From NCBI GenBank assembly GCA_031414955.1, contig JANOQV010000015.1, forward strand, positions 1 to 16,335: a stretch of DNA of 16,335 nt, given 5' to 3'. Made by a program: the position numbers and the translations under genes. The DNA is from Pedosphaera sp. GTDB lineage: Bacteria > Verrucomicrobiota > Verrucomicrobiia > Limisphaerales > SIBH01. Under the pieces are notes generated by a model. It did no database searches, was not told where the DNA came from, and saw only the letters and a program-made list of their open reading frames with translations. Numbering within the stretch: position 1 is the stretch's first letter; each line of letters opens with the position of its first letter. Shown one piece after another: positions 799 through 16,335 of this stretch.

Positions 799-822
799 AG
801 ATTGAGACCGCACAGGTGGAAA

Positions 823-839: not shown

Positions 840-902
840 GAGTCCCGATCCCCGCGCAAACAGGCAGGGTTCCGGGGTGAAGTATCGAACAGGATCCCGC
901 CG

Positions 903-1139
903 CTACGCTGGAATCGCCTCGCGCATTGGTCGTGTGGTGGGAGGCGGAAGTTCCTTGCCGTTCGCGCGCAACTCCGCGACCTCATCAGCCACGAGCGTGC
1001 AAATCTGGCGGTAAGCCTCCTCCTCGCTGGCTCCATGACACACGCCGCCCCAAGGAAAAAGATCGGGACAATAGCCGACGTAAAGACCGTCTGCCTCCTC
1101 CCACCGGACAAATTTCAAATACTGGTCTTGTGCTTTCAT
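903..1139 (-). CDS. hicB: HicB-family antitoxin (short, 78 aa, no obvious C-terminal DNA-binding domain)
   Basis: YLKFVRWEEADGLYVGYCPDL...CHGASEEEAYRQICTLVADEV...GKELPPP matches the HicB partial RNase H pattern. Its ATG overlaps the TGA of an upstream HicA-like fragment (ATGA). Confidence 0.85.
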   Translation of the reverse strand: MKAQDQYLKFVRWEEADGLYVGYCPDLFPWGGVCHGASEEEAYRQICTLVADEVAELRANGKELPPPTTRPMREAIPA

Positions 1140-1225
1140 GGTTTGGCTTTCTGGATGGCCTGCCGCACTTGTTTCTCCTGATAGTGATGCGCGTCACCGC
1201 CACTCACCGAGCACGGAGCCATCAT
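1136..1225 (-). pseudogene. hicA: C-terminal remnant of a HicA-family toxin
   Basis: Manual translation MMAPCSVSGGDAHHYQEKQVRQAIQKAKP*. 'GDAHHYQEKQVRQAI' resembles HicA C-terminal helices (G.DAK.YQEKQV..AI). The N-terminal GSH catalytic motif is missing. Stop overlaps the hicB start. Confidence 0.7.
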
Positions 1226-1237
1226 GGTGGCCAACCG

Positions 1238-1642
1238 TCACTTGAGCCAGTTGATTTTGATTTCCTTCTCCAACGCCTTGAACTCCGGGTCGCCGGTGAC
1301 GAGTTCGGCTTTCTTCTCCTTCGCCAGTGCGGCGGCGAAGGCGTCGGCGAGGCTGAGTTTGAAACGGGCTTTGAAGTCGGCGGCGGTATCGGCCATGCGG
1401 CGGTCGGCGATGTGGAATTCGATGGGGAGCGTCTCCAGAATGCGTGCCGCCTCGGCCCAGGCGTCGTCACCCTCCTTTTTGCGGATCGTGTAATTGGCCT
1501 CAGCATAGTTCACCTCGGTCATGTGCAGGGGGCGATCCGCCGTGACGGCCTTGTGAAAGAGTTCTTTGACGCGTTCCCCGCCCGGTTCCTGCCGGAAGTA
1601 GGCGAGCAGCGCGTGGCTATCGAGAACCAGTGCTGCGGGCAT
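1238..1642 (-). CDS. vapC: VapC PIN-domain ribonuclease toxin (134 aa)
   Basis: Start ATG at 1642 (MPAALVLDSHALLAY). PIN acidic residues in VLDS, NYAE, SLADA and LVTGDPEF. Overlaps the 3' end of the upstream AbrB gene. Confidence 0.92.
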   Translation of the reverse strand: MPAALVLDSHALLAYFRQEPGGERVKELFHKAVTADRPLHMTEVNYAEANYTIRKKEGDDAWAEAARILETLPIEFHIADRRMADTAADFKARFKLSLADAFAAALAKEKKAELVTGDPEFKALEKEIKINWLK

Positions 1643-1916
1643 ACTTGGCTTCCTCCAGTTCGATTTCCTCGCGCTTGTGCTCGGCCCGTTCCTCGGCAAA
1701 GGACTTTTCGCCCGGCTTGCGCTCGCGCTTGAGCAGGCCGTGGCCGCGGTCGATGGCCCAGCGGGTCACGGGCTTGAGGAGAATGCCCTCCGGCGTAGCC
1801 TCAATCACTGCCTTGGTGCCGTCCTCGATGTGGAACTGCTTGCGCAGCCAGCTCGGGATGACGACCTGGCCCTTGGTGGTGAACCAAACGGAATCAGACT
1901 TTGTTGTTGTGCTCAC
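1617..1916 (-). CDS. AbrB/MazE/SpoVT-family antitoxin (VapB-type)
   Basis: GTG start. Swapped-hairpin motif FTTKGQVVIPSWLRKQFHIEDGTKAVIEATPEGILLKP with an acidic C-terminus. Overlaps vapC by 26 nt. Confidence 0.92.
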   Translation of the reverse strand: MSTTTKSDSVWFTTKGQVVIPSWLRKQFHIEDGTKAVIEATPEGILLKPVTRWAIDRGHGLLKRERKPGEKSFAEERAEHKREEIELEEAKYARSTGSR

Positions 1917-1923
1917 GGGTGAA

Positions 1924-1982
1924 AGATTGATTTACGAGTTAAAGTCCGTCAACAGGTAAAAAGTCAGAAAGTTTTACCTGTT
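1924..1982 (-). promoter_or_regulatory. Sigma70-type promoter of the TA operon with an overlapping inverted-repeat operator
   Basis: Minus strand TTGACG (1952-1947), 17 nt, CAATCT (1929-1924), 7 nt before the GTG. Perfect 11-bp inverted repeat AACAGGTAAAA (1951-1961) / TTTTACCTGTT (1972-1982) in a locally AT-rich tract. Confidence 0.6.
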
Positions 1983-2172
1983 TCTGATATTGCTGCGCAA
2001 ATGCAGCGGCAGGGCCAGATGATCACTTTCTTTTCAAAACGGCCCCCTGGGCAGACGCCAGTCGCGGCGCGCGGGCGGGGTTTCTTTCGGCGGCAGCGGG
2101 GAGTTCGGCCATTCTTGCGCGTGCTGGGCACGATCGGCGTCGGTGTGTCCGGCGCCCAAGCCGTCGTTCCCT

Positions 2173-3072
2173 TCAACCAGCTCCGGGTGCTTGCTTGTTT
2201 CCTGTCGCGGCCAGGTAAATTCCCGCGAGGATGAGGGCGGCGGCGGCGGCGTTGCCCCAGGTCAGCGCTTCGTCAAAAAGCCACCAGGCGATCAGCGAAC
2301 TGAGCACGGGTTCGCCCAGCAGGCACACGGCGATGAAGCCGGCGCTGAAGTATTTCATCGCCCAGTTGTAGCTGCTGTGGCCGAGGTGCTGGCTGACCAG
2401 CGCCATGCCGAGGAGCGCTCCCCAGGTCTGGGCGTTGAAGTCGGTCGCGGGCTGTCCCGCCGCGAGAACGGCGACCCAGAGTAGCGCGGTCGCGCTGCTG
2501 TAGCACACCGTCAGGTAAGCGGGCAGAGAGAGCTTCGCGCGCAGGTTCCGGCCACACAGCATGTAGAAGGCGAGGGCCAGACTTCCGGCCAGCGCCAGTC
2601 CGTCGCCGAGCAAGGCGCGCGGGTCGCTTGCGAAGTCGCCGCAGCCGATCACGATCCCGCCGGCCACGCTGACAGCGATGCCCAGCCACGCGCGGCGTGA
2701 AACACGATCCCGCGTCAGCCACGGCGTCAGGAGGGCCACCCATAACGGGGTGGCGTTCACCAGCACTGTGCTGTTGGCCACGGAGGTGAAGTTGAGCGAG
2801 GAAATCCAGGTGGCGAAATGCAGCGCGAGAAAGAAACCAGCGAGCGCGCCGAGGCCGATCTCGCGCCGGGAAAGTTGGCGCAACTCGGCCCGCGCCTGCC
2901 AGAGGGCGTAGGGCCAAAGGAGCGCCGTGGCGAAAGTCAGCCGCCAGGCCGCCGTGACCAGCGACGGTGCCTCCGCCAGGCGGACGAAGATGGCTCCGCT
3001 CGAAACCGACAGCACGCCCACGAGGAGGATAAGGGCGGGATTGAAGCGTGGGCGGATGGGCGACGATTGCAT
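2173..3072 (-). CDS. EamA/DMT-family transporter
   Basis: 299 aa, about 10 hydrophobic segments in two repeats. Motifs SSGAIFVRLA, AAWRL, ALHFATWISSLNFTSVANS, GHSSYNWAMKY, LGEPV. Confidence 0.93.
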   Translation of the reverse strand: MQSSPIRPRFNPALILLVGVLSVSSGAIFVRLAEAPSLVTAAWRLTFATALLWPYALWQARAELRQLSRREIGLGALAGFFLALHFATWISSLNFTSVANSTVLVNATPLWVALLTPWLTRDRVSRRAWLGIAVSVAGGIVIGCGDFASDPRALLGDGLALAGSLALAFYMLCGRNLRAKLSLPAYLTVCYSSATALLWVAVLAAGQPATDFNAQTWGALLGMALVSQHLGHSSYNWAMKYFSAGFIAVCLLGEPVLSSLIAWWLFDEALTWGNAAAAALILAGIYLAATGNKQAPGAG

Positions 3073-3314
3073 GTCAGGGCGGAGTTTTGTGCGAAGGCGT
3101 GCCGGGCGTCACGAGGAGAATGGAGAACAAGGAGCGCCACGCCTGCTCGCAAACTTGCCGTGGCCCGCGAATAATTTGCCGCGTGAGCCGGCCGGCCGCA
3201 GGAACGCGCCCGCTCCAAACTGAAAATGATGGCGCGGCGCATGGGCTGTTTTGCCAGCAAGAGGCGCGCGCGCCTGAGGCGGGCTTGACCCGGCTGGCCC
3301 CGACACCCATCGCA

Positions 3315-3569
3315 TCACCGCCCTTCTTTCCGCTTCCGTTCCGCCTCCAGTTCCTTCTCGCTCGGCGGCACGACATAGTTTCCGGCGGCGGTGGTCACGA
3401 GCAACTTTTTGTCCTTGAGACCGGACAGGAAAGGGTAGGCCCAACGCTCGTTCTCCTTCCACCGGTCCTTGGTGGAGGACTTGCGGCAAATCTCGCGCGG
3501 CGACGCGCCGTTCTCGCCGCATTGCTGTACGAATCTCATGATGTTCTGCTCGTCATCGTTCAACCACAT
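3315..3569 (-). CDS. Small hypothetical protein, probable winged-helix fold (84 aa)
   Basis: MWLNDDEQNIMRFVQQCGENGASPREICRKSSTKDRWKENERWAYPFLSGLKDKKLLVTTAAGNYVVPP...; fills the gap between EamA and the M3 peptidase. Preceded by TTGAGC-17-CACTGT. In the ORF track it is only the tail of the 3315..5234 ORF. Confidence 0.75.
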   Translation of the reverse strand: MWLNDDEQNIMRFVQQCGENGASPREICRKSSTKDRWKENERWAYPFLSGLKDKKLLVTTAAGNYVVPPSEKELEAERKRKEGR

Positions 3570-3644
3570 GCGCGCACAGTGGGGCTGCGCGCGGTCTGGC
3601 TCAAATCTTTTGTCTTTTGCCGGATTCGCCCCATGCTTGCCGCC

Positions 3645-5375
3645 ATGAATTTGCTGCCGTTTGGAAATCTGCCCGTACACACGCCGCGCCAGTTGGTGCC
3701 GGTTGAAATTAATCTTGGGGATTGGAATCGGATTGCACCCTTGTTTGACGCTGTGGAAGCGAAGCTCACCGGAGCGAAGATCGTGGCGGAACTGGAGCTG
3801 GCGCTGCTCGACTGGAGCGAACTTTCCGCCGCCCTCGATGAGGAAGCGGCCAAGCGTTACATCGCGATGAGTTGTCATACGGACAGTGCCGAGGCCGAGC
3901 AGGCTTATCTGCACTTCGTCGAGCACGTCGAACCCCAGACCAAGCCGCGCCAATTCAAGCTGGAGCAGATGTACCTGGCGCAGCCGCTGCGGGCGCAGTT
4001 GCCGAAGGCACGCTATGAAGTCTTCGATCGCGACACGCAGCAGCACGTCGAGCTGTTCCGGCTGGAAAATGTGGCCCTCGAAACCGAGGAGGCCAAGCTC
4101 GGCCAGCAGTTCCAGAAACTGTCCGGCTCGCTCACGGTGAAGTTTCGTGGCGAAGAGAAGACGCTCGTCCAGATGGGCCGTTACCTCGAGGAACCGGATC
4201 GCGCGCTGCGGCAGGAGGCGTGGGAATTGGTGTCGCGCCGGCGCGGCGAGGAGCGCGAGAAGTTCGAAGAACTCTTCGACGGACTGGTGAAACTGCGCGG
4301 TGAGATCGCGAAGAATGCCGGCTTCGCCAACTACCGCGACTACGCCTTCAAGGCGCGCGGCCGGTTTGATTACTCGCCGGACGATTGCTTGGCCTTCCAT
4401 GAGGCCATCGAGACGGAGCTGATGCCGTTGCTGCGCGAGTTGCAGTCTGCGCGACGCGAGCAGTTGAAGCTGCCCGCGCTGCGCCCGTGGGATCTGGCGG
4501 TCGATCCGTTGAATCGCGCGCCGTTGCGGCCCTTCGAGAAAGTGGACGACATGGTGGCGCGCACGCAGAAGATTTTCGACCGCATCGATCCGGGATTGGC
4601 CGGTGGTTTCCGCGACATGCAGGAGAAGAAGCTGCTCGACCTCGACAATCGCAAGGGCAAGGCGCCCGGCGGCTATCAATCCACGCTCTCCGAGTCGCGC
4701 CTGCCGTTCATCTTCATGAACGCCGTGGGTTTGCAGCGTGACGTGGAAACAATTCTGCACGAGGCTGGCCATGCCTTTCACGCGCTGGCCACGCGCGAGG
4801 AACCGCTCTACGCCTATCGTGGATCGCCGATTGAGTTTTGCGAGGTCGCGTCCATGAGCATGGAACTGCTCGGCAATGAATTCCTCGAGGAGTTTTATGC
4901 CGCCGGGGACGCGGATCGCGCCCGACGCACGCATCTTGAAGGCATCGTCGGCATCTTCCCGTGGATTGCGACGGTCGATGCGTTTCAGCACTGGATTTAC
5001 ACGCACCCGAATCACACCCGCGCCGAGCGGAGCGCGGCGTGGCTGGCGTTGATGGATCGTTTCGGCGGCGACGTGGACTGGAGCGGCCACGAGCAGGCGC
5101 GCGCCAACCTTTGGCACAAGCAACTGCACATCTTTCTCTACCCGTTCTACTACGTGGAATACGGGATCGCGCAGCTCGGCGCTCTGCAAGTCTGGGCCAA
5201 CTCGAAACGAAACAAAGCCGAGGCGCTGGCGCAATATCAGCGCGGTCTGGCCTTGGGCAATTCACGTCCGCTGCCCGAACTGTTCGCCGCCGCCGGCTGC
5301 AAGTTTTCCTTCCATCGCGAGACGGTCCAGCCTCTGGTGCAACTGCTGAAGGACGAGCTGGCGAAGTTGAACTGA
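3645..5375 (+). CDS. M3-family oligoendopeptidase (PepF/M3B-like), 576 aa
   Basis: Zn motif TILHEAGHAFH, downstream EVASMSMEL, GKAPGGY, HIFLYPFYYVEYGIAQLGALQVW. Start placed at ATG 3645 because the upstream part of the 3048 ORF overlaps other genes. Confidence 0.93.
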   Translation: MNLLPFGNLPVHTPRQLVPVEINLGDWNRIAPLFDAVEAKLTGAKIVAELELALLDWSELSAALDEEAAKRYIAMSCHTDSAEAEQAYLHFVEHVEPQTKPRQFKLEQMYLAQPLRAQLPKARYEVFDRDTQQHVELFRLENVALETEEAKLGQQFQKLSGSLTVKFRGEEKTLVQMGRYLEEPDRALRQEAWELVSRRRGEEREKFEELFDGLVKLRGEIAKNAGFANYRDYAFKARGRFDYSPDDCLAFHEAIETELMPLLRELQSARREQLKLPALRPWDLAVDPLNRAPLRPFEKVDDMVARTQKIFDRIDPGLAGGFRDMQEKKLLDLDNRKGKAPGGYQSTLSESRLPFIFMNAVGLQRDVETILHEAGHAFHALATREEPLYAYRGSPIEFCEVASMSMELLGNEFLEEFYAAGDADRARRTHLEGIVGIFPWIATVDAFQHWIYTHPNHTRAERSAAWLALMDRFGGDVDWSGHEQARANLWHKQLHIFLYPFYYVEYGIAQLGALQVWANSKRNKAEALAQYQRGLALGNSRPLPELFAAAGCKFSFHRETVQPLVQLLKDELAKLN

Positions 5376-5428
5376 AGTCCGGGGAACGGAGGGGTTGAAG
5401 TGGTTCGACCGGGCGGGCGACCGCCAGT

Positions 5429-7795
5429 TCACGGTGCGGCCAACCGGTAGAAGCGCGGCGCGACCTCGGGGACCAGCAGTTCGTACTCCTCGCCGCGCAG
5501 GTTGGGCAGGCCAGGGTGCGGAAGCCAGTTCGTGTTCCCCAGCGCAGGGTTGAATTGCACGCGGAAGCCCGGCACTGCCGCCGGCCAGCGCAGCCGATGG
5601 GTCGTGTTACTGAGCGTGATCGACAGGCGCGGGGCCAGCGTGGCGGCGAGAGCCAGGTCGAAGCCGAGATCGCTGCTGTTCGCCGCCGCCTGGTGAACCT
5701 CGACCGCGAGCACGTTCAGCCCGTTGGTCAAAGCCGGCGTCCCGAGGCTCGTCTGCAGCCAGTTCGTTTCATCCGCGCCGCTGATGGTGGTGAGCGCGAG
5801 ATTCGTGAACGTGAGCGGACCGGCGGGGAGATTGGTGCGAAGGATTTCCACTCCGTTCAGGTAAACCACCGCGCCATCGTCGCGTTGCAGACTCAGGTGC
5901 AAGGGGCCGAACCAGGCGGCGTCCTCGATCTGAAAAGCGTGGCGAAAGTAGCAGGTGACGGGTTTGGCGGCGGGGTTGGTGCCGGATTGAAGGGTCGTCC
6001 ATTCGCCGTCGAGGCCATAGCCGAGCCGGCCTCGACCCGAGGGCCAGCCGCTGTCGTCAAAGGTGCGGGCCGTCCAGGCGGCGGGCGGATTCGTGCCTGC
6101 ATCCAGATAGCGCCAACTTGCGTGCGCCGGGATGAGCGAACCGCGCGCCGATTCTGTCTGGGCCAGCAATTGCAGCTCAAAGCTGAGGTCGCTGCTCGCC
6201 CCCGCGCTTTGGTGGATTTCCACCGCCACGACATTCGTGCCGTTGCGCAATCGCGCGGGATCCAGGGCGGCGGTCGCAAACAGCGTGCCCTCCTCCGCGC
6301 CGCCGATCGCGGCCAGGGCCAGGGTGGCGGCGTGGATCGCGCCGGTGGGCAGGTTGCTGCGGAATACTTCGGCACCGTTCAGATACACCACCGCGCCATC
6401 ATCGCGCAGCAAACGCAGCGTCAACGAATGAATCGACGCCGTGCTCGCCACCGTGAACGCGCGCCGGAACCAGGTGGTGATGAACTTGTTCGTCATGACG
6501 GAGCCGTAGCCCACGAGCGTGGCTTCATCGCCATCGCCATAACCGAACGGGGCCAGGCCCGACATCCACGCGCCGTCGTTGAAGGTGTTTGATTTCCAGG
6601 CCGCCGCAGGGCTCAGGCCCGTGTCGAGGAAGCGCCAGGTGGCCCTCGTGTCCACCAGCGCGAGCGGATTGATCGGCGGTGGCGAGGCCAGGCCGCCCAA
6701 CGAACGATCGCCTGCGCGCCAGGCCACGATGGCGTCGGTCAGTTGCGGGTTGTCGAGGTCTTCATGGCCGATTTCCCAAAAGCCCAGGCCGCGCGCGATG
6801 GCACCGCCGGCGAGGACGGTCTCCCGTTCGTCGAGCAGGACGTTCAGCTTCTGCTTCAGATTGTCCGGCGTGGTCCACCAGGCGCCGTCGATCAAGACCT
6901 CGCGGTAATCCGGATCGGTGGCGTTGAGAAAGCCGAGGCGGTTGGTGGCCCACAGCCCCGCGCCGCTAAACCAGGAGCGGTTGTCCGAGGAATAGAACGG
7001 CAGGCCCACGAGGATTTTCTCCGCCGGATAACCGTGCGCGATCATGTAGTCGATGGCGCCCTTGCCTGCGGCCTCAATGCTGCCGCCGCTTAAGCCGAGG
7101 AATTGCACGCTCCCTGGTTTGCGGATGGGACCATTGGCCGGGTTCTTCCAGTCATAGACAATGGCGAAACAGAAATCACTCCAGGGTGCGACCGCCGGCC
7201 AGTCCGTGCCCGCCAGCCAATAGCCCGGACCTTGCACGAACATGACGATGTATTCCGGGCTACGCGCCTTGACCGCCGTATGCACGGCCTGGAGGAAGGC
7301 GGTGAAGTTCGTCCGATCCGCCGCCGTGTCCGGCCACTCCCAATCGAAGTCCACGCCATCGTAGCCGTAGGTCTCGAGCGCGCTGGCGATGTTGGTCGCG
7401 GCGATTCCGCGCAACGCGGCGCTGGCGGCGACGGCCGGGAAATCGCCGTTCATGCTCATCAACACCGAGCGACCGTGCGCATGCGCCTGCGGTAAGAGCA
7501 GCGGCCGGTAAATCTCTGTGCTGCCGTAGTTGTGATCGAGCGAGCCGTCGGAGTTCAGCCAGGTGAAAGCGAGCAGGATGAGATCCACGGCTTCGTAGTT
7601 CAGCGAGGCAATTTTGTTCGAAGTAGTGCCGGTGCCCTGGCGCAGGGCGTTCAAGTAGCCCGCGCTCACCTGGCGGGCCGGCACCGTGCTCAAGCCCCGG
7701 ACCGGGGCGGCGGCCGGCAGGACCGTGGCCGTCACCAGCAGGAGCATTTTCGCTGCGAGCAGACGCAGCCAGAGTGGGGCGAGGGCGTGGTTCAT
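5429..7795 (-). CDS. Secreted glycoside hydrolase family 18 (chitinase-like) with two tandem beta-sandwich modules and a C-terminal 'RFYRL' domain
   Basis: Signal-like N-terminus from ATG 7795. Intact DGVDFDWE (DxxDxDxE) motif, YDW, VGLPFYS, GLGFWEIG. Two internal repeats WR(F/Y)LD.G...RDDGAVVYLNG.E..R.NLP.G...NV.AVE.HQ...SSDL.F.L. Confidence 0.9.
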   Translation of the reverse strand: MNHALAPLWLRLLAAKMLLLVTATVLPAAAPVRGLSTVPARQVSAGYLNALRQGTGTTSNKIASLNYEAVDLILLAFTWLNSDGSLDHNYGSTEIYRPLLLPQAHAHGRSVLMSMNGDFPAVAASAALRGIAATNIASALETYGYDGVDFDWEWPDTAADRTNFTAFLQAVHTAVKARSPEYIVMFVQGPGYWLAGTDWPAVAPWSDFCFAIVYDWKNPANGPIRKPGSVQFLGLSGGSIEAAGKGAIDYMIAHGYPAEKILVGLPFYSSDNRSWFSGAGLWATNRLGFLNATDPDYREVLIDGAWWTTPDNLKQKLNVLLDERETVLAGGAIARGLGFWEIGHEDLDNPQLTDAIVAWRAGDRSLGGLASPPPINPLALVDTRATWRFLDTGLSPAAAWKSNTFNDGAWMSGLAPFGYGDGDEATLVGYGSVMTNKFITTWFRRAFTVASTASIHSLTLRLLRDDGAVVYLNGAEVFRSNLPTGAIHAATLALAAIGGAEEGTLFATAALDPARLRNGTNVVAVEIHQSAGASSDLSFELQLLAQTESARGSLIPAHASWRYLDAGTNPPAAWTARTFDDSGWPSGRGRLGYGLDGEWTTLQSGTNPAAKPVTCYFRHAFQIEDAAWFGPLHLSLQRDDGAVVYLNGVEILRTNLPAGPLTFTNLALTTISGADETNWLQTSLGTPALTNGLNVLAVEVHQAAANSSDLGFDLALAATLAPRLSITLSNTTHRLRWPAAVPGFRVQFNPALGNTNWLPHPGLPNLRGEEYELLVPEVAPRFYRLAAP
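5645..6658 (-). repeat. Intragenic tandem duplication of a ~165-aa domain (about 6658-6161 and 6136-5645)
   Basis: Shared protein motifs GYG.DG, T.(W/Y)FR..F, RDDGAVVYLNG, NV.AVE.HQ, SSDL.F.L. Boundaries are approximate. Confidence 0.85.
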
Positions 7796-8055
7796 AGTTC
7801 GCCGAGAAAATGCCCGCCGCCGCCCGGAATGCAACTGCCGAGGCGGAGGTGGGCCAGGCGGGATGCGTCGCCACCCGTCCGCTGGTTTGCAATTTACGAC
7901 CCGCGCGCCGCGCCATTATGCTCGCCCCCTGACCACCACGACGCTTATGCCACCACCCGCGAAGGATCGTTCGCGGCCAGCGGCCGCGCGCGCAGGACGG
8001 TCAGGCGGAAATCCTCGCCCGACGACGCGACCGCGACCGAGGCACGGAGCTATTT

Positions 8056-8808
8056 ATGAAGAGACACGAGCTTAGGCACCCCCAGACTGGGAGAGCAAAA
8101 TGGGCCTCTATTTTTCTGGCCTTCATTTTCCTTTTGGCCGGGGCGGCTTTGCTCGGCCCGGGTTGCGCGCGACGCCACGCACTGGAACCCGTTTTTACCC
8201 GGCTCTTCCCGGAGGACGGCGTGCCCGTCGGCTGGCGGGTGGGCGCTTGGAATGACGTTTCCAAGCCCGGCCCGACCGGCACGGTCTGGCGGGTGCAGGG
8301 CGGTGTGCTGCAACCCGAAGGCCCGCGCGGCTCGTGGTTGATGAGCGAGAAGGCTTACGGGGATTTCGTGCTCGAATACGAGTTCAAGCTCGGCGTGACC
8401 GGCAACAGCGGCCTGGCCCTGCGCGCGCCCATGAAGGGTGATCCCGCCTTCGACGGCCTCGAACTTCAAATGGCGGATTTCCGTTACAACCCCAGCGCCA
8501 AGGATTCAGAACTTACCGGCGGCCTCTATCGCGCACTCGCTCCGACCAGGCAGGTTTACAAACCGACCGAGTGGAACAGCTACCATGTCGAGCTACGCGG
8601 CTCGCGCATCCTCGTGATCCTGAACGGTGAGAAAATTCAGGACGCGGACTTGAACACGCAGACGAACACGGTGAAGCGCCACGACAACACCCTGGCTGTG
8701 CCCCTCACGGATCGCCCGCGCCGCGGCCACATCGGCTTCCAGGAATTGAGCAAGGGCGAGATTCCGCATGTGATGATCCGCAACGCGCGGATTCAGGAAC
8801 TGAAGTAA
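8056..8808 (+). CDS. DUF1080 (3-keto-disaccharide hydrolase-like) exported protein, possible lipoprotein
   Basis: GGAG RBS. Hydrophobic stretch ending LGPGC. Motifs W.VQGGVL, YGDFVLEYEFK, GNSGL, GLELQ, TGGLY, EWNSY, RGHIGFQ. Confidence 0.9.
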   Translation: MKRHELRHPQTGRAKWASIFLAFIFLLAGAALLGPGCARRHALEPVFTRLFPEDGVPVGWRVGAWNDVSKPGPTGTVWRVQGGVLQPEGPRGSWLMSEKAYGDFVLEYEFKLGVTGNSGLALRAPMKGDPAFDGLELQMADFRYNPSAKDSELTGGLYRALAPTRQVYKPTEWNSYHVELRGSRILVILNGEKIQDADLNTQTNTVKRHDNTLAVPLTDRPRRGHIGFQELSKGEIPHVMIRNARIQELK

Positions 8809-8810
8809 CC

Positions 8811-8877
8811 GGAGCGCCGCGCATCGCTCGACTCATTCTTTCCGGGGTGTCTGCCGCCGAGCCATGCGCGGCACTCC
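8811..8877. repeat. REP-doublet (REPIN-like) inverted repeat, copy 1
   Basis: Arms GGAGCGCCGCGCATCGCTCGAC (8811-8832) and GCCGAGCCATGCGCGGCACTCC (8856-8877), 19/22 complementary, between converging genes. Same family as 14038-14106. Confidence 0.7.
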
Positions 8878-8895
8878 CACCGAAAATCTTGCGGC

Positions 8896-9726
8896 CTACT
8901 TCTCATCCAACTGCGCCTCGGCCTTCTTCAACTTTTCCTCCGGCGCGGGCTTGGCCTGGCGGGCTTGCTCCGCGATCTCCAGCACATCCGCCGCCGGGAT
9001 GACGACGAGGTGGGATGATTTGCCCCGGACGAACCGCGTGACCGCGATGCCGACGAGCTTGCCGTCCATCGAGAACGTCGGGCAGCCGAGGTTGGAGCCG
9101 GTGACCCGCATGAACTCGCGCGGCTTCTTGGTCACGGAAGTGACCTGGCCGCGGGCCACGCTGCCCACGCGGTTCAACACGTCGTCCATGCGGCTGATGC
9201 TGACCACATCGTCGCCGACGTTCACAGCGGCGGTGTTTTTCAAGTCCACGGCCTTGAACTCCACGCCTTTGCTTTCTTTGCTGCCGGCTTTGATCCGCAG
9301 AAACGCCAGGTCGAGATCGGTGTCGCGCATGAGGACGTCGGCGGGGATCTCCGTGCCGTCGGGCATGGTGACGCGGACTTCCTTGAGCGTGGCGCTGGCC
9401 TCGATCTTGACCGTGCCATCGCGGGTGCGGACTTCGCGCCCGCTGAGTTCGCGCGTCGGGTCGATGGAACTGAGCGCGGTGACGATAAATCCTGACGCGT
9501 CGAGAATGGTGCCGAGCGTCTCGGCCTTTTGTTCCCGGTCGGGAATGTTCACCGCCTCCTTCGCGCCCTCGGCCTGCATGGAAATTTTGGCCACGACCGA
9601 AATCCAAACCACGGTGTCCTGGCGATCCGCGAAAACTTTGCGGGCCTGGGCGGCGAGCGAATCCTGGGCGCGAGTCGTGGTGGCGGCCAGCAGCGCCGCG
9701 GCTAAAATGGTGTTGAGCAGTTTCAT
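8896..9726 (-). CDS. Secreted trypsin-like (HtrA-type) protease-domain protein, predicted catalytically inactive
   Basis: GGAG RBS, signal peptide MKLLNTILAAALLAATTTRA. Fold motifs GTILDASGFIVT, DTDLDLAFLRI, GCPTFSMDGKLVGI. TNxH appears as TALS and GNSGGP as SNLGCP. No PDZ domain. Confidence 0.85.
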   Translation of the reverse strand: MKLLNTILAAALLAATTTRAQDSLAAQARKVFADRQDTVVWISVVAKISMQAEGAKEAVNIPDREQKAETLGTILDASGFIVTALSSIDPTRELSGREVRTRDGTVKIEASATLKEVRVTMPDGTEIPADVLMRDTDLDLAFLRIKAGSKESKGVEFKAVDLKNTAAVNVGDDVVSISRMDDVLNRVGSVARGQVTSVTKKPREFMRVTGSNLGCPTFSMDGKLVGIAVTRFVRGKSSHLVVIPAADVLEIAEQARQAKPAPEEKLKKAEAQLDEK

Positions 9727-9763
9727 GATAAATCTCCGGAGCGTTGCTGGGCGATGGCGCGGC

Positions 9764-11830
9764 CTACCACTTCGGCTCCAGTTCGATGAAGGAAGTGCGG
9801 ATGCCGCGCTTGATGAAGAAGGTGATGCGGCGCGACCTGCTCTCGCGCACCTTGTTTAAGATGCGCTTCAACTCGCCGATGCTGCCGACGGCCTGACCGT
9901 CGATAGCCAGCAGGATGTCGGTCGAGGACAACCCGGCCAGGGCCGCCCAGCCCGCGTTCTGCACGGAACCAATGCGCACCCCTTGGTCGGTCTCGGCCAG
10001 TTTGGCGTCGAGGCGGTCGTTGAGCGAAAGCTCGCGCGCGGAGAACTCGAACTGCTCGTCCTTGTATTCCTCCAATTCGGAGCTGGGCTTGGGCTGGCGG
10101 CCGAGCGCGACGGAGAGTTTGAGCGGCTGGCCGGCGCGCACCCCGTCCAGCTCGGCGGTGCCGTTGACCTTGTACTGGCGGACCAGGTTCTCGAACAGCT
10201 CCTGGTCCGAGGGCGTGCTCGCCGCGATGACTTGCCCATCGAGCTTGAGGAAAATGTCGCCCGTCTTGATGCCGCCCTTCTCGGCCGGCGAGCCAGGCAT
10301 GACCCGGGTGATGCGGATGCCCTTGCGCCCCTCGAGTTCGAGGGCTTCCGCCAGCTCGCGCGTGAGCACCTGCGACTGCACGCCCAGCCAGGCCTTGGCC
10401 GGACGCGCGGGTTTGTCCTCCTGCACCTCGGGGCCGATCTTTGCCACGGTCACGTACTCCTGTGCATCGCGTTCGAAGGTGACGACGAGCGGCTTGGGCT
10501 CGCTGAGGCCGTTGGTGAACTGCCTGGTAAAAGCCACCAGGGCCGCCGTGTTCGCCACGATTTGGCCGGCGACCTTGGTGATGACGTCGCCGCTGCGCAG
10601 GGCGGGCTTCGCCTCGGCGGCGGCACCACCCGGACGAACGCCGTCCACCAGCACACCCGAGCGATCGGCTCGCTGATTCTCCAAGGCCGACAGCCGCGTG
10701 AAATCCCGCGTGGTCATGGCCCAGGCGAGCAGTTCCCCTTCGAGCGCCTCGTTCGGTTCACGTTCGACCGTCGTGAGGGTCCAACTGGCGGGCTGGCCGG
10801 CGCGGGTGCCCTTGAGCGTCACCCGCGCGCCGACCGCCGTGTTTAGAATCATGCGGTTGAAGAGGGGAAGATCCTCGGGCGCACGGCTCTCGACCACGGC
10901 GGCACGATCGTAATCGCTGATAAAATCCCCGGCCTGCAATCCTGCTTTCTGGGCCGGGCTGTCCGGCAGCACATGCGCCACCAGCACGCCTTTGGCATCG
11001 TGCATCTGCTTGAGCAGCGGCTGCACCTCGACCCCGATCCAACTGCGCGAGACGCGGCCCTTGGCGATTAACTCCTGGGCGACGGATTGCGCCAGGTTCG
11101 AGGGAATGGCCCCGCCCAGGCTGCCGATGCCGACCTCATTCACGCCGATGATCTCGCCGCGCAAGTTGACCAGCGGCCCGCCACTGTTGCCGCCGTAGAT
11201 CACCGCGTCGTGGCCGATCCAGCGCACGAGTTCGCCCACGCGCTCGCCGTCGAGAATCATGCTGCCACTCGGGGAAATCATGGCGGTGTTGGCCACGATG
11301 CCCTTGGTCACGGATTGCGAAATGCCGGCCGGGCTGCCCATCGCGAGCACCACGTCGCCCACGGCGAGTTCATCGGAGTTGCCAAACCTGGCCACGGGCA
11401 ACTTCTCCTTGGGGTTGCGGCGGCTGGAGAGATCGAGCTTCAGGATCGCCAGGTCGCTCAAGGCATCCGTGCCCACGAGCACGGCGTCCACCTCCTCGCG
11501 ATTGGAGAGACGGCAGACCAGGCGCGTGGCCCGCCCGGCGACATGGTGGTTGGTCACGATGTAACCGTCCTCGGAAATGATGGCGCCGCTGCCGCTGGAA
11601 CGGCGCTTCTGCATCCGCCCGCCCTCGCCTTCCTCGAACACGACGTGGATGCGCACCAGCGCCGGATAGACCGCATCCACCGCGCGCTGGATGGCCTCGC
11701 GCGTCGTGTCATCAGCCCTGGCCTGGGCGGAAGCCCGGCCCGCCGTGGAAGTCGCACAGCCCGTGGGCAAAAGCAGAACCGGAGTGGCGAGCAGGAGCGT
11801 GGCTCCCAGAATTGTTTGGCGCAGGGTCAT
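9764..11830 (-). CDS. HtrA/DegP-family serine protease, probable lipoprotein, with four PDZ domains (688 aa)
   Basis: Start ATG 11830 (MTLRQTILGATLLLATPVLLLPTGC, lipobox-like). Triad motifs IVTNHHV, SDLAIL, GGNSGGP. Four PDZ signatures: GVLVAHVLPDSPAQKAGLQAGD, GVLVDGVRPGGAAAEAKPALRSGD, GIRITRVMPGSPAEKGGIKTGD, GVRIGSVQNAGWAALAGLSSTD. Confidence 0.92.
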   Translation of the reverse strand: MTLRQTILGATLLLATPVLLLPTGCATSTAGRASAQARADDTTREAIQRAVDAVYPALVRIHVVFEEGEGGRMQKRRSSGSGAIISEDGYIVTNHHVAGRATRLVCRLSNREEVDAVLVGTDALSDLAILKLDLSSRRNPKEKLPVARFGNSDELAVGDVVLAMGSPAGISQSVTKGIVANTAMISPSGSMILDGERVGELVRWIGHDAVIYGGNSGGPLVNLRGEIIGVNEVGIGSLGGAIPSNLAQSVAQELIAKGRVSRSWIGVEVQPLLKQMHDAKGVLVAHVLPDSPAQKAGLQAGDFISDYDRAAVVESRAPEDLPLFNRMILNTAVGARVTLKGTRAGQPASWTLTTVEREPNEALEGELLAWAMTTRDFTRLSALENQRADRSGVLVDGVRPGGAAAEAKPALRSGDVITKVAGQIVANTAALVAFTRQFTNGLSEPKPLVVTFERDAQEYVTVAKIGPEVQEDKPARPAKAWLGVQSQVLTRELAEALELEGRKGIRITRVMPGSPAEKGGIKTGDIFLKLDGQVIAASTPSDQELFENLVRQYKVNGTAELDGVRAGQPLKLSVALGRQPKPSSELEEYKDEQFEFSARELSLNDRLDAKLAETDQGVRIGSVQNAGWAALAGLSSTDILLAIDGQAVGSIGELKRILNKVRESRSRRITFFIKRGIRTSFIELEPKW

Positions 11831-11915
11831 CGGGGAGATGAGTTCACATTCAGAGGGCGGCGTCGAGCCTGAGTTGCGCCTGGCGCGCGGACAGGAATGT
11901 CCGCGCCCCGCCAGC

Positions 11916-12398
11916 TCACCGTGTCCGCCCATCCGCCGCGAACCGGCAGGCGTCGGCGACGAGCGCGAGCTGCTCCAGAAATTGCTCCCGGCCGGCTTCC
12001 GGCAGCACGGCCAGCACTTCGCCCTGGAGCTGAAGGGCGATTTCTCGCGCGGCTTCGTAGGTCTGGCGGCCCTTGGGCAGGAGCTTGATGCGGTGGGCGC
12101 GGCGATCCTTCTCGTGCGGCGTGCGCGCGATGTAATCCACTTTCTCCATGCGTTCGAGCAACGACGCAACCGTGTTCGGATCGCTCGACATGAGCCGCGA
12201 CAGTTCGCGCTGGGTCAGCCCGAGGTGGTCGCCCTCCAGCAGGATGCGCAGCACGGTGAATTGATCGGGCGTGAGTTGAAGATGGACGAGGCGGCGCCGG
12301 AAGGCCTGGTTCAACCCGTACCAGGAGCGACGCAGCAGGGGCGGCAGGCGGCGCCGGCTTGGCGAATCAATCGGCTCCGGGATTTCGGGCAAGGGCAT
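11916..12398 (-). CDS. MarR-family transcriptional regulator (160 aa)
   Basis: LTPDQFTVL, LTQRELSRLM, TVASLLERMEKVDYIARTPHEKDRRAHRIKLLPKG. ATG 12398 lies 5 nt after the lpxD stop. Confidence 0.92.
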   Translation of the reverse strand: MPLPEIPEPIDSPSRRRLPPLLRRSWYGLNQAFRRRLVHLQLTPDQFTVLRILLEGDHLGLTQRELSRLMSSDPNTVASLLERMEKVDYIARTPHEKDRRAHRIKLLPKGRQTYEAAREIALQLQGEVLAVLPEAGREQFLEQLALVADACRFAADGRTR

Positions 12399-12403
12399 GG
12401 CGT

Positions 12404-13441
12404 TCAGGACTTGGGCATGGCCTCGAGCAGCGGGCCAAATTTCTTCTCCAGCTCGGCGAGCCGGCGCAGCAAGTCGGGCAGGCGGCGAATGGCGATGTAT
12501 TGGCGCTTGGCTTCCCGGTCGGGGCACGCGGGAGCGCCCAGCCATTTCTCGCCGGCCGGGATGTCGCTCATGACGCCGGACTGCGCGGCCACGGTGACTT
12601 GACTGCCAATCTTCAAATGACCGCCCAGCCCCACCTGGCCGGCCAGGGTGACGAAATTACCGAGCTGGGTGCTGCCGGCGATGCCGACCTGGCCGACGAT
12701 GATGCAGCCTTCGCCCATCACGACGTTGTGCGCGACTTGCACGAGGTTGTCGATCTTCGTGCCGCGGCCGATGACCGTCGAACCGAGCGCGCCGCGATCG
12801 ATGGAGGTGTTGGAACCGATCTCCACGTCATCGTGGATGATCACGTTGCCCAGCTGCAGCACTTTCCGATGCTGCCCGGCGTCGAACACGTAGCCGAAAC
12901 CATCCGAGCCGATGACGGTGCCGGCGTGGATGCGAACTCGACGGCCAATCTGGGTGCGAGCATAGAGGACGACGTTCGGGAACAAGCGGCTGTCCTCCCC
13001 GAGCTGCGAGTCGTCGCCGACGTGGTTGCCGCCAAGCAGGGCGGAGCGCGCGCCGATCTTCACGCGTTCACCCACCACGCAGTGCGGGCCGATGTGTGCG
13101 GCAGGATCGATCTGGGCCGACGGCGCGACCACGGCACTGGCGTGAACGCCGGGCGCGTACTGCGGCTCGGGGAAAAACAGAGGCAGCACTTTCGCAAACG
13201 CCAGGCGCGGGTTCTTCACCCGCAACAAGGTCTTCGTCGCCGGGGTGACATGGCCGCCCACGAGAATCGCGGAGGCTCCGCCCTGCTCGGCCTGGGTGAA
13301 GTAGTCCTCATTCTCGGCGAAGGTCAGATGCCCGGCTTGCGCCTGGTCTGCGGGGGCAAAGCCGGTGATCTGAATCGAAGCATCGCCCAGGAGTTCGGCC
13401 CCGAGTTGTTCAGCCAGTTGGGAAGTGGTGAAAGTGGGCAT
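12404..13441 (-). CDS. lpxD: UDP-3-O-(3-hydroxyacyl)glucosamine N-acyltransferase
   Basis: N-terminal LpxD domain, hexapeptide repeats, IGSDGFGY, VEIGSNTSIDRG, KIDNLVQVAHNV (catalytic His), GQVGIAGS. Confidence 0.95.
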   Translation of the reverse strand: MPTFTTSQLAEQLGAELLGDASIQITGFAPADQAQAGHLTFAENEDYFTQAEQGGASAILVGGHVTPATKTLLRVKNPRLAFAKVLPLFFPEPQYAPGVHASAVVAPSAQIDPAAHIGPHCVVGERVKIGARSALLGGNHVGDDSQLGEDSRLFPNVVLYARTQIGRRVRIHAGTVIGSDGFGYVFDAGQHRKVLQLGNVIIHDDVEIGSNTSIDRGALGSTVIGRGTKIDNLVQVAHNVVMGEGCIIVGQVGIAGSTQLGNFVTLAGQVGLGGHLKIGSQVTVAAQSGVMSDIPAGEKWLGAPACPDREAKRQYIAIRRLPDLLRRLAELEKKFGPLLEAMPKS

Positions 13442-13460
13442 GGGTTAAAAGACAAATCAG

Positions 13461-13481
13461 GAATGACGAATGACGAATGAA
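13461..13481. repeat. Heptamer tandem repeat (GAATGAC)x3
   Basis: gaatgac gaatgac gaatgaa, just upstream of the lpxD start. Confidence 0.7.
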
Positions 13482-13609
13482 CTGGCGCGTGGCCCGCCGC
13501 GAGCGGAGTCGCGGCCCGCCCTGTCCGCAGTCCCCAGTTCTACTGAACCCGCCGCCCCCGGCCTGTTCAATGGCATGACCACAGCGGACCTGGCTGTCCG
13601 TTGCTCCAC

Positions 13610-13642
13610 CGACCTTGGACTTTGGACCCTGGACTTTGGACT
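13610..13642. repeat. Heptamer tandem repeat (GGACTTT-like) x~4.7
   Basis: cgacctt ggacttt ggaccct ggacttt ggact, just downstream of the panD stop. Confidence 0.7.
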
Positions 13643-13647
13643 CATTT

Positions 13648-14010
13648 TCAAATCCCCCGGTGATTGATGACGGCGTTCTTCGCTCCCAGCACGATGACGC
13701 GCGGCTCCCATTTCATGGCCTGCGTTTCCTCGACCATCGTGTAGCTCATGATGGTGAGGAGGTCGCCGGGCTTCCCGAGGTGGGCCGTCGCGCCGTTGAG
13801 CACGATGTGGCCGGAGCCGCGCTCACCCGCGATCAGATAGGTTTCGAAGCGGTTCCCGTTCGCCAGGTTGCTGCACAGCACGCGCTCGTAGGGCCGGAAG
13901 CCGACCTGGTCCATCAGGTCGAGGTCGATGGTCAGGCTGCCCTCGTAGTTCAGGCTCGCGTCCGTGACCGTGGCGCGATGGATCTTCGATTTCAGGATGT
14001 GAATCTGCAT
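13648..14010 (-). CDS. panD: Aspartate 1-decarboxylase (pyruvoyl proenzyme)
   Basis: LKSKIHRATVT, YEG|SLTID self-cleavage site, NGNRFETY, LNGATAHL. ATG at 14010 (TTG at 14013 is an alternative). Confidence 0.96.
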   Translation of the reverse strand: MQIHILKSKIHRATVTDASLNYEGSLTIDLDLMDQVGFRPYERVLCSNLANGNRFETYLIAGERGSGHIVLNGATAHLGKPGDLLTIMSYTMVEETQAMKWEPRVIVLGAKNAVINHRGI

Positions 14011-14037
14011 CAATGATTGGCGAGCCGTCCGCGGCTT

Positions 14038-14106
14038 GGAGCACCGAGCATGGCCCGGCCCGAACTGGAGATTTCACCCTCCCGGCCGAGCCATGCTCGG
14101 CGCTCC
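14038..14106. repeat. REP-doublet (REPIN-like) inverted repeat, copy 2, in the panD leader
   Basis: Arms GGAGCACCGAGCATGGCCCGGC and GCCGAGCCATGCTCGGCGCTCC. Extended arms 14036-14060 / 14084-14108 are 23/25 complementary. The unit is itself a palindrome (GCCGAGC-ATG-GCTCGGC) after a GGAG head. Confidence 0.75.
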
Positions 14107-14118
14107 AAACTCCCGTCG

Positions 14119-14168
14119 TTGACTCGCAATTGGCGCGGAATATAGAGTCCGGGCGATTTCCCGCGCAA
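14119..14168. promoter_or_regulatory. Overlapping divergent sigma70-like promoters for the oxidoreductase (+) and panD (-)
   Basis: Plus: TTGACT (14119-14124), 18 nt, TAGAGT (14143-14148). Minus: TTGCGC (14168-14163), 18 nt, TATATT (14144-14139). Confidence 0.5.
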
Positions 14169-14221
14169 TCAAAGTTTGCCGGGAGCACGACGCAGCAGGC
14201 AGAAATTCAACACACAAATTT

Positions 14222-15385
14222 ATGAGCAGGAAGATTCGTTACGGCATGGTGGGCGGCGGGCGCGGAGCCTTCATCGGCGCGGTGCATCGCATCGCGGCCG
14301 CGATGGACCAGCAGATCGAACTCGTCTGCGGGGCGCTGTCCTCGGACCCGGAGCGCGCCAAAGCCAGCGGCGCGGATTTGTTCCTGCCCGCCGCGCGCTG
14401 TTACGGCAGCTACCAGGAGATGATCCAGGCGGAGAAGAAGCGGCCCGCTGATGAGCGCATGGACTTTGTGGCCATCGTGACGCCCAACCACATGCACTTC
14501 CCGCCGGCCAAGCTGGCGTTGGAGAATGGCTTTCACGTTTTAAGCGACAAGCCCGCGACGTTAAACCTCGCCCAGGCCAAGAAGCTCGCCGAGATCGTCA
14601 AGAAGACCGGCCTGCTTTATGGGCTTACGCACAATTACACCGGCTATCCGCTGGTGAAAGAGGCCCGCGACCTGATCCGCGCGGGCAAGCTGGGCAAGAT
14701 TCGCAAAGTCGTGGCCGAGTATCCGCAAGGCTGGCTGGCCACCCGCCTCGAAGCCAGCGGGCAGAAACAGGCCGCCTGGCGCACCGACCCGAAGCGCAGC
14801 GGCGCGGCGGGCTGCGTGGGCGACATCGGCACACACGCCGAGAACCTCGCCGAGTACATCACCGGCTTGCAGATTGAGGAACTGGCCGCCGACCTCACCG
14901 CTTTCGTCAAAGGTCGCAAGCTCGATGACGACGCGAACGTGCTGCTCCGTTTCAAAGGGGGTGCCAAAGGCGTGCTGCACTGCTCGCAGATTTCCGTGGG
15001 CGAGGAGAACAACCTGAACATCCGCGTCTATGGCGAACTGGGCGGACTCGAATGGCATCAGAAGGAACCGAACACCTTGCTGCTCAAGTGGCTTGACCAG
15101 CCCATGCAGGTCTATCGCACGGCCAACGGCTACCTCGGCGACAACGCCAAGGCCGCCGGGCGGACCCCACCCTCGCATCCCGAGGGCTACCTCGAAGCCT
15201 TCGCGAACATCTACAAGAACTTCGCCAACGCCATCCGCGCCCGCGAAGCCGGCCAGAAACTGGCGAAGAACTCTCCGGCCAACGATTACCCAAAGATTGA
15301 GGATGGTGTCCGCGGCATGGCCTTCATCGAAGCCGTCGTGAAGTCATCGAAGAAGAACGCGGCGTGGACGGGACTGGATGTGTGA
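14222..15385 (+). CDS. Gfo/Idh/MocA-family NAD(P)-dependent oxidoreductase
   Basis: [54 protein letters not shown]. Confidence 0.94.
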
Positions 15386-15415
15386 TCGAAAGGCTCGCGG
15401 GTCTGGGACAACAGA

Positions 15416-16099
15416 TCATCGCCCGAGCCGTTCGCGCACAAACACCGCCGCCTGCTCCAGCGTGGCACTCAAATCCCTCTCGACGGGAAATGCCTTTTGA
15501 AAAGGCGTGCCCCTTGCGCGGCCGGTAACGCGCACTTCCCCCGCTGTCCGGTCGTAAATGATCTTCGCGAACGATCCTTTGCCGGCCGGCGTTCGCTCCC
15601 ACTGCTCCAACTCGCCAGGCGTTGAGAATTGCCGCACGTCCTTCCACCGCGCTTGCAGCAGGGCGATTTGATTTGTCTCCGCGCCGCGCGTTCCGCCCGC
15701 CGTGTCGAGCATGGCGACTTCGATCACGGGTCGGCTGGGATTCAACAATGTAAGGGCGAACACGATCATCGCCGTGGCTGTGGCCAGGCCGAGCGCCCAG
15801 CGCCAGTTCCAGCCGCGATGCTTTGCATTGTCGGGGCTGCCGAGCGTTTGCCGCACCTTGGTCTGCAACCGCTCGCGGGCGTAAGCGGGGAATTCCGGCT
15901 GCGAAGATTCCATTGCTGATGTCAGTGGAGCGGCTTCGCGGGCCAGCCTCGCATCGGTTTGCAGCCGTTCCCACTCCGCCTTGAGTTCGGGCTTCGCCGA
16001 CAGCAACGCCTCAAGCTCCGCCCACTCCGCCTCCGTGCAGCGTTGTGCGATGACCTTCATGGCCAGATCGAAAAACCGTTGGTCATTCATTGAGTTCAT
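15416..16099 (-). CDS. Putative membrane-anchored anti-sigma factor
   Basis: Directly downstream of an ECF sigma gene. N-terminal helical segment (CTEAEWAELEALLSAKPELKAEW), one TM helix (WALGLATATAMIVFALTLL), then a small extracytoplasmic domain. Alternative start at 16090. Confidence 0.7.
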   Translation of the reverse strand: MNSMNDQRFFDLAMKVIAQRCTEAEWAELEALLSAKPELKAEWERLQTDARLAREAAPLTSAMESSQPEFPAYARERLQTKVRQTLGSPDNAKHRGWNWRWALGLATATAMIVFALTLLNPSRPVIEVAMLDTAGGTRGAETNQIALLQARWKDVRQFSTPGELEQWERTPAGKGSFAKIIYDRTAGEVRVTGRARGTPFQKAFPVERDLSATLEQAAVFVRERLGR

Positions 16100-16121
16100 C
16101 GCAAATGCCGGGCCGCTTCTT

Positions 16122-16334
16122 TCAATTTTTCTCCCGCCGCTCCCATGCGTGGCGCATCACCTCCAACCCGCGCTTCAAATAGACGCCAACCGAACCGACC
16201 GCCACGCCATGCTTCTTCGCCATTTCCTCGTAGCTCAATCCGTTGACGAAGAAATCTTGCAGCAACTCGCCTTGCGGCGGCTTCAACTCCGCCATCATCC
16301 CGCCCAGCACGTTCGCCAGTTCCTTCTGCGTCAG
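16122..16334 (-). CDS. ECF RNA polymerase sigma factor, region 4 (5'-partial)
   Basis: Frame is open to the window edge: LTQKELANVLGGMMAELKPPQGELLQDFFVNGLSYEEMAKKHGVAVGSVGVYLKRGLEVMR, a sigma-4 HTH pattern (GLSYEE.A...G...GSV...L.RG). Confidence 0.85.
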   Translation of the reverse strand: MTQKELANVLGGMMAELKPPQGELLQDFFVNGLSYEEMAKKHGVAVGSVGVYLKRGLEVMRHAWERREKN

Positions 16335-16335
16335 C

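Follow-up and report, generated by a model that had tools for sequence, protein, structure and literature searches.

In the standard view, HtrA proteases are homo-oligomers of mutually activating subunits. Dead copies of HtrA are known already, MamO and DEG7 being examples. DEG7 and Nma111/Ynm3 combine one active domain, one dead domain, and four PDZ domains in a duplicated protease-PDZ-PDZ unit (PMC3194040; PMC3473262, partial text); DEG7 arose by duplication of a whole gene and trimerises through its dead domain, and one-chain proteins of this kind have been reported only from fungi and plants (PMC3194040). Among magnetotactic bacteria, pairs of active and dead HtrA proteins arose three times, as exemplified by MamE and MamO, and LimO is a stand-alone dead domain (PMC4794232, partial text). 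The plant Deg5/Deg8 heterohexamer is a mixed complex with an HtrA subunit that lacks PDZ domains (PMC3194040). Here we analyse a 16,335-nt stretch of DNA from Pedosphaera sp. (contig JANOQV010000015.1, positions 1 to 16,335; hereafter the window), in which the gene for an active HtrA protease with four PDZ domains (P0001) is followed by a gene for a PDZ-less protein with a dead HtrA fold (P0002). The pair is real, widespread, and apparently undescribed. Literature searches, in which subscription journals were thinly covered and supplements lay outside the scope, gave no account of this family, and the available parts of PMC6411480 and PMC8103513 do not mention the system; PMC6411480 and PMC4794232 may list these proteins unlabelled, the former in its tables and the latter in its large Deg tree. 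The two genes have the following features in window coordinates.

9764..11830, minus strand: gene for P0001, active four-PDZ HtrA, 688 aa (ATG at 11830, TAG at 9764)
11756..11830, minus strand: export signal, P0001 residues 1-25, with a possible non-canonical lipoprotein Cys25 (read from sequence)
11057..11701, minus strand: active protease domain, P0001 residues ~44-258 (Pfam and alignment)
11543-11545, minus strand: H96, catalytic His of P0001 (TNHHV)
11453-11455, minus strand: D126, catalytic Asp of P0001 (SDLA)
11279-11281, minus strand: M184 of P0001, at the position of DegP Arg187
11183-11185, minus strand: S216, nucleophile of P0001 (GNSGGP)
10763..11047, minus strand: PDZ1, of the DegP PDZ1 type
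10433..10735, minus strand: PDZ2
10091..10399, minus strand: PDZ3, paralogue of PDZ1, matching the first PDZ of the sister-operon dead chain
9767..10057, minus strand: PDZ4, paralogue of PDZ2, matching the second PDZ of the sister-operon dead chain
9727..9763, minus strand: 37-nt spacer with a ribosome-binding-site-like GGAGA at 9733-9737, 6 nt before the P0002 ATG
8896..9726, minus strand: gene for P0002, PDZ-less HtrA-fold pseudoprotease, 276 aa
9667..9726, minus strand: signal-peptide-like residues 1-20 of P0002, with a hydrophobic core and a T-R-A end (judged from sequence)
8953..9657, minus strand: dead protease fold, P0002 residues ~24-258
9469-9471, minus strand: S86, at the catalytic His position of P0002 (profile alignment)
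9310-9312, minus strand: D139, the Asp retained in P0002 (profile alignment)
9118-9126, minus strand: K201-P202-R203, conserved L3 loop motif of P0002
9088-9090, minus strand: L213, at the nucleophile Ser position of P0002 (profile alignment)

The protease domain of P0001 matches Pfam Trypsin_2 (E 1e-26), the Pfam models PDZ, PDZ_2, and PDZ_6 each find four stretches, and the triad is intact in 69/69 homologues with the protease domain on the contig. The best NCBIfam match is the DegP/Do subfamily model TIGR02037, whose score of 378.6 lies below the cut-off of 416.2. Profile comparison matches PDZ1 with PDZ3 (99.7%) and PDZ2 with PDZ4 (99.0%), so that the four domains are a duplicated pair; PDZ4 terminates in a conserved ExPxW in the alignment of homologues. 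P0001 resembles DegP, DegQ, and MucD, which provide its best sequence and fold matches, in its protease domain, triad, and PDZ1-PDZ2, but differs from them in two extra PDZ domains, in replaced activation residues, and in a presumed need for a dead partner. An earlier note on this DNA, made from the letters alone, had described the large gene in these terms, with an intact triad and four PDZ domains, and translation and the Pfam scan bear this out. The note's further label of a membrane-tethered lipoprotein is weak. The motif at Cys25 is P-T-G-C, with a Pro at -3 where a lipobox usually has another residue, and a signal-peptidase-I-like A-Q-A site comes after it. Moreover, a simple regular expression finds a lipobox pattern in only 6/51 P0001 homologues, and the nearest relatives (L020-L023) have no Cys at this position; lipidation does not appear to be a family trait.

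Trypsin_2 is the sole Pfam match of P0002 (E 3.5e-13), and no PDZ was found in it. Its AlphaFold2 model (predicted local distance difference test [pLDDT] 84.5; predicted template modelling score [pTM] 0.78) has DegP chains as its best Foldseek matches (E 3e-12); a sequence search of solved structures with P0002 gave nothing better than E>=0.02. A word search returned 245 homologues, and the family spans 410 clusters at 50% identity (E<=1e-30). Among 351 aligned homologues (82 domains from loci, 120 close, and 149 distant), 13 have a His in the ten-residue window round the site, one has a GxSG string, and none has both. Because DxDLDL was the search pattern of the 80 loci described below, its invariance there is circular, and retention of the Asp was therefore counted in the 149 distant representatives, 137 of which keep D139. 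The conserved non-catalytic positions of the family are D135/D139, R179 in the LD loop, K201-P202-R203, and G214-x-P216. The ratio of nonsynonymous to synonymous substitution rates (dN/dS) over four relatives is 0.16-0.26 for P0002 vs 0.12-0.14 for the protease. Together, sequence and predicted fold identify P0002 as an exported HtrA-fold pseudoprotease under purifying selection. The earlier note's account of a PDZ-less trypsin-fold gene with His and Ser replaced and Asp retained is thus confirmed at S86, L213, and D139 and in the predicted structure; the profile and structure scans that it called for recovered both the four PDZ domains and the trypsin fold, and homologues of the small gene do regularly lack His and Ser.

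The two genes are inherited together. Loci were sampled as the best 80 of 485 related places in species genomes, and the four-PDZ protease lies directly upstream of the dead gene in 78 of these 80; the genomes of the two exceptions carry the protease elsewhere. The dead gene starts at most 73 nt from the protease stop codon in 72/78 loci, with an overlap in 24 (approximate counts). The PDZ3-4 half of the protease was detected at E<1e-60 in 13 of 61 relatives, 12 of which have the dead gene; the protease of the thirteenth stops at a contig edge. In a survey of 301 genomes of the same phylum, the four-PDZ clade (score >=517; next score 363) and the dead family occur in an identical set of 16, with the genes adjacent in 14 and apart in 2. 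Among 251 genomes of a second phylum, taken as Planctomycetota and counted by hand from tables, the four-PDZ type occurs in 47, all of which have the dead gene. The dead gene matches at E<=1e-12 in 46 of them (45 adjacent, one of these in reversed order, and one across two contigs), and in the remaining genome an insertion splits the dead gene, which lies immediately downstream of the protease; conversely, the protease is present in 46/48 genomes with a strong dead-gene match. These genomes are kin, and the co-occurrence counts are therefore non-independent trials. The earlier note's 37-nt gap, ribosome-binding site, and signal peptide of the small gene all stand, the last as a sequence-based judgement, and its suggestion that homologues of the small gene adjoin four-PDZ HtrA genes holds in both phyla. 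No gene recurs beside the pair beyond single lineages in the 80 loci, and no other gene travels with it. On the minus strand of the window between 8700 and 12700, neither a sigma-70-like promoter nor a terminator-like site was found.

Second-tier protease matches, which end after PDZ2, lie in operons related to the pair. The 32 loci of this kind in the same phylum fall into three groups: 15 encode protease-PDZ1-PDZ2 followed by dead domain-PDZ-PDZ, with the Deg7 order spread over two genes; in 11, the partner is a ~740-aa protein whose long N-terminal part precedes two PDZ domains; and six show no partner, some being truncated by contig ends. All 16 second-tier loci fetched from the second phylum have a two-PDZ gene downstream, and the P0002 profile recovers a dead domain in 15 of them (42-86 bits); the first PDZ of these partners matches the PDZ3 profile best or in a tie, and the second matches PDZ4 best. 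The sister dead domain matches P0002 at 98.7%, and TNxHV and GxSGGP are absent from 30/30 sister dead domains. The halves of the ~740-aa partner match each other at 94.9%, and the second half matches P0002 at 92.5% vs only 46% for the first; its language-model neighbours are Trypsin_2 proteins, and it probably carries two dead domains. Some loci hold two dead genes (G024, L082, L094, G427). In a tree of protease+PDZ1+PDZ2 (59 rows; like the Deg7 and PDZ trees below, a quick tree with support from the Shimodaira-Hasegawa-like approximate likelihood ratio test [SH-aLRT] only), the active chains of all these operons form one clade (support 99) that stands apart from ordinary DegP-like proteins. 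Within it, the deepest branch is the ~740-aa type, and the four-PDZ type (90) has the dead-PDZ-PDZ type as its sister. Because PDZ3-4 belongs to the dead chain in both other branches, parsimony favours this as the ancestral arrangement, and PDZ3-4 probably derived from the dead chain. The pairing of the dead subunit with PDZ3-4 that the earlier note proposed thereby gains evolutionary backing, in that sister operons encode dead protease-PDZ3-PDZ4 as one chain.

Nine genomes (G170, G251, G287, G391, G427, G445, G450, G497, G616) match both the four-PDZ type and the two-PDZ sister, and the two forms are therefore not simply interchangeable. At one locus, the ~740-aa dead partner occurs twice in tandem behind one active gene (L163:3-1643 and 1746-3992). 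A CxxCxxxH motif is present in the first dead domain of 11/11 ~740-aa partners (L136, L140-L142, L145, L159, L162, L163, L166-L168) and in some three-domain operons (L118, L018/L019, P0244), where it could mark a zinc site or a disulfide of a dead protease.

Comparison with one-chain proteins places the locus outside Deg7/Nma111. A peptide pattern from DEG7 (PMC3194040) retrieved 120 metagenome stretches with the motif in frame in all, and 48 of these are uninterrupted ~960-aa reading frames with the Deg7 layout, which we take as bacterial because they lack introns. The active domain of P0001 scores 349-375 against DegP-type profiles vs 65-70 against Deg7-type profiles. Likewise, the dead domain of P0002 matches ordinary HtrA at 98.3% vs a probability of 5% for the Deg7-type dead domain, which itself matches its own active domain at 97.7%. 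In the corresponding tree, for which the 48 metagenome proteins stood in for yeast and Arabidopsis sequences, Deg7-type active and dead domains group together (92), as do both dead types of the operons described here (99, with a long-branch warning). PF12812 (PDZ_1) scores 94-99 bits in the two Deg7-type frames tested; it is not listed for P0001 at E 0.1, has no match in genome G000, and gave only borderline matches in a survey of 101 genomes. The locus also departs from the one-chain Deg7 order of protease-PDZ-PDZ-dead protease-PDZ-PDZ: here one gene encodes protease-PDZ-PDZ-PDZ-PDZ and a second encodes the dead protease. Descent from Nma111/Deg7, to which the earlier note likened the pair, is therefore not supported. 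Both systems unite active and dead domains with four PDZ domains, and sister operons show the same domain order in two genes, but the locus described here differs in having two exported chains, another lineage, no PF12812, and, in the window type, the extra PDZ pair on the active chain. Because the one-chain proteins form a separate lineage, the likeness is convergent; the comparisons indicate that the active/dead plus four-PDZ design arose twice and that the resemblance is one of analogy. The apparently bacterial Nma111/DEG7-type frames of ~960 aa (in L170-L249; for example, L172:2838-5735) are a candidate source of the eukaryotic gene.

Other mixed systems are also distinguishable. MamO is among the fold matches of the dead HtrA domains in these operons, but the latter have no TauE domain or conserved His pair, the NCBIfam MamO score is 18 vs a cut-off of 800, and no magnetosome genes are among the recurring neighbours; moreover, a PDZ hand-over of this kind is not described for MamE/MamO in the available part of PMC4794232. 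The top structural match of a tandem dead protein is Deg5 (Z 19.8, tied with DegS). Deg5 has a catalytic triad (PMC3473262, partial text), whereas P0002 is dead.

The residues by which HtrA subunits activate each other differ between the two chains. In DegS and DegP, an L3 arginine (Arg178 and Arg187, respectively) and Gln191/Gln200 contact the LD loop of the neighbouring subunit and order its active site; these residues are required for trans-activation, and replacing them lowers DegP activity (PMC11642142, partial text). Residue numbering was checked on K-12 sequences, and positions were aligned to MucD and DegP. Among parsed four-PDZ proteases, the Arg187 position is M or L in 66/66, the Gln200 position is G or L in 68/68, the LD aromatic is retained in 1/68, and the L2 Phe is replaced by Gly in 67/67. 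Their L3 exceeds that of DegP-like proteins by 9-14 residues and has an acidic insert with an invariant GExVG. Sister active chains retain the Arg (14/14, 10/10, and 12/12 parsed) and the Gln. R203 is present in 116/125 dead subunits of the four-PDZ type, compared to <=1/15 and 0/15 sister dead chains, and R179 in 120/125, compared to <=3/15 and 0/15. In L333, which branches earliest among the four-PDZ members, the protease still has Arg, Gln, and Phe, and KPR is absent from its dead partner. The loss of activation residues by the active clade while its dead partner fixed KPR suggests that the dead partner supplies activation in a mixed ring. In addition, two dead domains are predicted to pack together, because a natural dead-dead fusion, both halves of which have the HtrA fold, gives a model with a pTM of 0.79 across a disordered linker (pLDDT under 50). 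The dead gene at L333 (L333:2112-3413, genome G402) has a ~100-residue acidic, proline-rich insertion in mid-domain.

We consider it close to an even chance that the two proteins assemble into a single mixed ring in the periplasm, where the dead subunit would provide the protease with a neighbour contact that it can probably no longer make itself. That they form a stable complex of some kind, either such an activating ring or an assembly around a Deg7-like dead hub, is probable. Tandem duplication of a DegP-like gene would have been followed by death of the second protease domain and then by movement of the PDZ pair of the dead copy to the active chain, with the activation cluster remodelled afterwards. 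KPR in L3 of the dead subunit would order the LD, L1, and L2 loops of the active subunit, whose acidic L3 insert would pair with the LD arginines of the dead subunit. The most likely core would be one active and two dead domains, with PDZ1 and PDZ3 catching substrate C-termini and, by analogy with DegP, PDZ2 and PDZ4 joining rings to form larger cages. Envelope protein quality control or processing would be the likely function. We also propose, tentatively and at somewhat under an even chance, the wider view that the pair represents an obligate heteromeric HtrA with catalysis and allosteric activation split between subunits. It would belong to a family widespread in the Planctomycetes-Verrucomicrobia-Chlamydiae (PVC) group, whose modules (an active domain, one to three dead domains, and four PDZ domains) are divided among two or three genes in four or more arrangements; the Deg7/Nma111 design would have been invented a second time here, independently.

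Several results weigh against this interpretation. K201 and R203 sit 8 and 10 residues past the anchor glycine vs 7 for Arg187, an offset of one to three residues that makes the equivalence of KPR with Arg187 approximate, and loss of the activation residues with gain of KPR is a single evolutionary event rather than a repeated one. A single plus a tandem dead gene in G032, G088, G238, and G349 give three dead domains per protease, which fit a dead homotrimer better than a 1:2 ring. Activation of MamE needed the TauE domain of MamO, not the dead protease domain alone (PMC4794232, partial text). Genomes G477 and G600 have the dead gene without a four-PDZ match at E 1e-110, and L026 and G609 have extra, unlinked dead-gene copies. 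A PDZ-only tree fails to resolve the ancestry of PDZ3-4 (support 76), and PDZ3 scores 157 against the PDZ1 profile of ordinary DegP vs 138 against the sister profile, so that ordinary scores are no lower; because tree and profiles leave this point undecided, the ancestry proposed for PDZ3-4 rests on the reciprocal comparison and on gene structure. Finally, weak searches, which also missed known 530-aa tandem forms, revealed no chain that joins active and dead domains (the dead-family alignment against proteins of 519-2000 aa and the sister dead domain against 805-2295 aa); the longest of the best 150 representatives of P0002 clusters has 615 aa.

The alternative that survives best, although we regard it as on the unlikely side, is a hub like that of DEG7, in which dead subunits trimerise by themselves and three active chains dock through PDZ3-4 and the protease domain (3:3), so that the dead trimer is a scaffold rather than a neighbour within the ring; of all the readings, this one comes nearest to the proposal of the earlier note. 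The degenerate domain of plant DEG7 mediates trimerisation, and its active domain alone is monomeric (PMC3194040); the operons with exactly three dead domains, the predicted dead-dead packing, and the location of PDZ3-4 on the dead chain in sister operons are all consistent with such a hub. By itself, however, a hub leaves the loss of Arg187, Gln200, and the LD and L2 aromatics and the fixation of KPR unexplained, and a 1:2 ring accommodates the ~740-aa partners, with their two dead domains. Less plausible still is that the small protein works apart from the protease, as a chaperone or substrate adaptor that serves the same pathway and touches the enzyme only in passing. This role would suit the small protein's own signal peptide and ribosome-binding site, the separation of the genes in G330, G231, and G062, and the few orphan copies, and there are precedents in inactive HtrA proteins that can serve as chaperones (PMC11642142, partial text) and in the repurposing of MamO for metal binding (PMC4794232, partial text); but the near one-to-one co-occurrence, the transfer of two PDZ domains between the chains, and the complementary changes in the loops fit a shared assembly more easily. 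We think it very unlikely that the small protein is a dedicated inhibitor, a dominant-negative decoy that quiets the protease until stress removes it. A decoy would keep its fold and conserved surface loops without His and Ser and could be co-translated with its target, as seen here, but the likely ancestral dead chain bore PDZ domains of the substrate-binding type, and because the active clade lacks its own trans-activation residues, removal of the partner is expected to lower activity rather than to raise it. That P0002 is a working enzyme or a decaying duplicate is scarcely credible: C215, present in 111/120 close homologues beside a retained catalytic Asp, might suggest a cysteine protease, but it aligns two residues past the nucleophile position, is C in only 28/149 distant representatives, and has no His to act with, while decay is ruled out by the dN/dS values and the 410 clusters reported above.

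The remainder of the window contains other genes. On the strand of the pair, panD, lpxD, and a MarR-family gene (11916-14013, minus strand) lead into the protease gene. Searches of the 80 loci for marR, lpxD, and panD gave 0 matches; as the upstream genes are not conserved there, we rejected a connection with lipid A synthesis or with control by MarR. A 3-keto-disaccharide hydrolase gene (8056-8808, plus strand) converges on the small gene, a position common to the four closest relatives only. Farther away are a gene for an 801-aa glycoside hydrolase family 18 (GH18; chitinase-like) protein whose C-terminal part holds two repeated beta-rich modules that have no confident Pfam match (5429-7834, minus strand) and, at the end of the window, a gene for an anti-sigma-like protein with a weak NCBIfam match (15416-16335, minus strand), which an extracytoplasmic function (ECF) sigma gene may precede. 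A YhcG-type nuclease fragment (1-798, plus strand) and a toxin-antitoxin pair of the AbrB/MazE-like and PIN-domain types (1238-1916, minus strand) lie in a lower-GC stretch.

The family illustrates clearly how two PDZ domains can pass from one gene of a probable complex to another. Its parts, being small and soluble and open to separate expression, could also help to show what the dead domain does in Deg7/Nma111-like proteases. If the mixed ring is correct, activating and cutting roles would reside in different subunits, which would allow a direct test of the homo-oligomer model of HtrA proteases without engineered mixed trimers.

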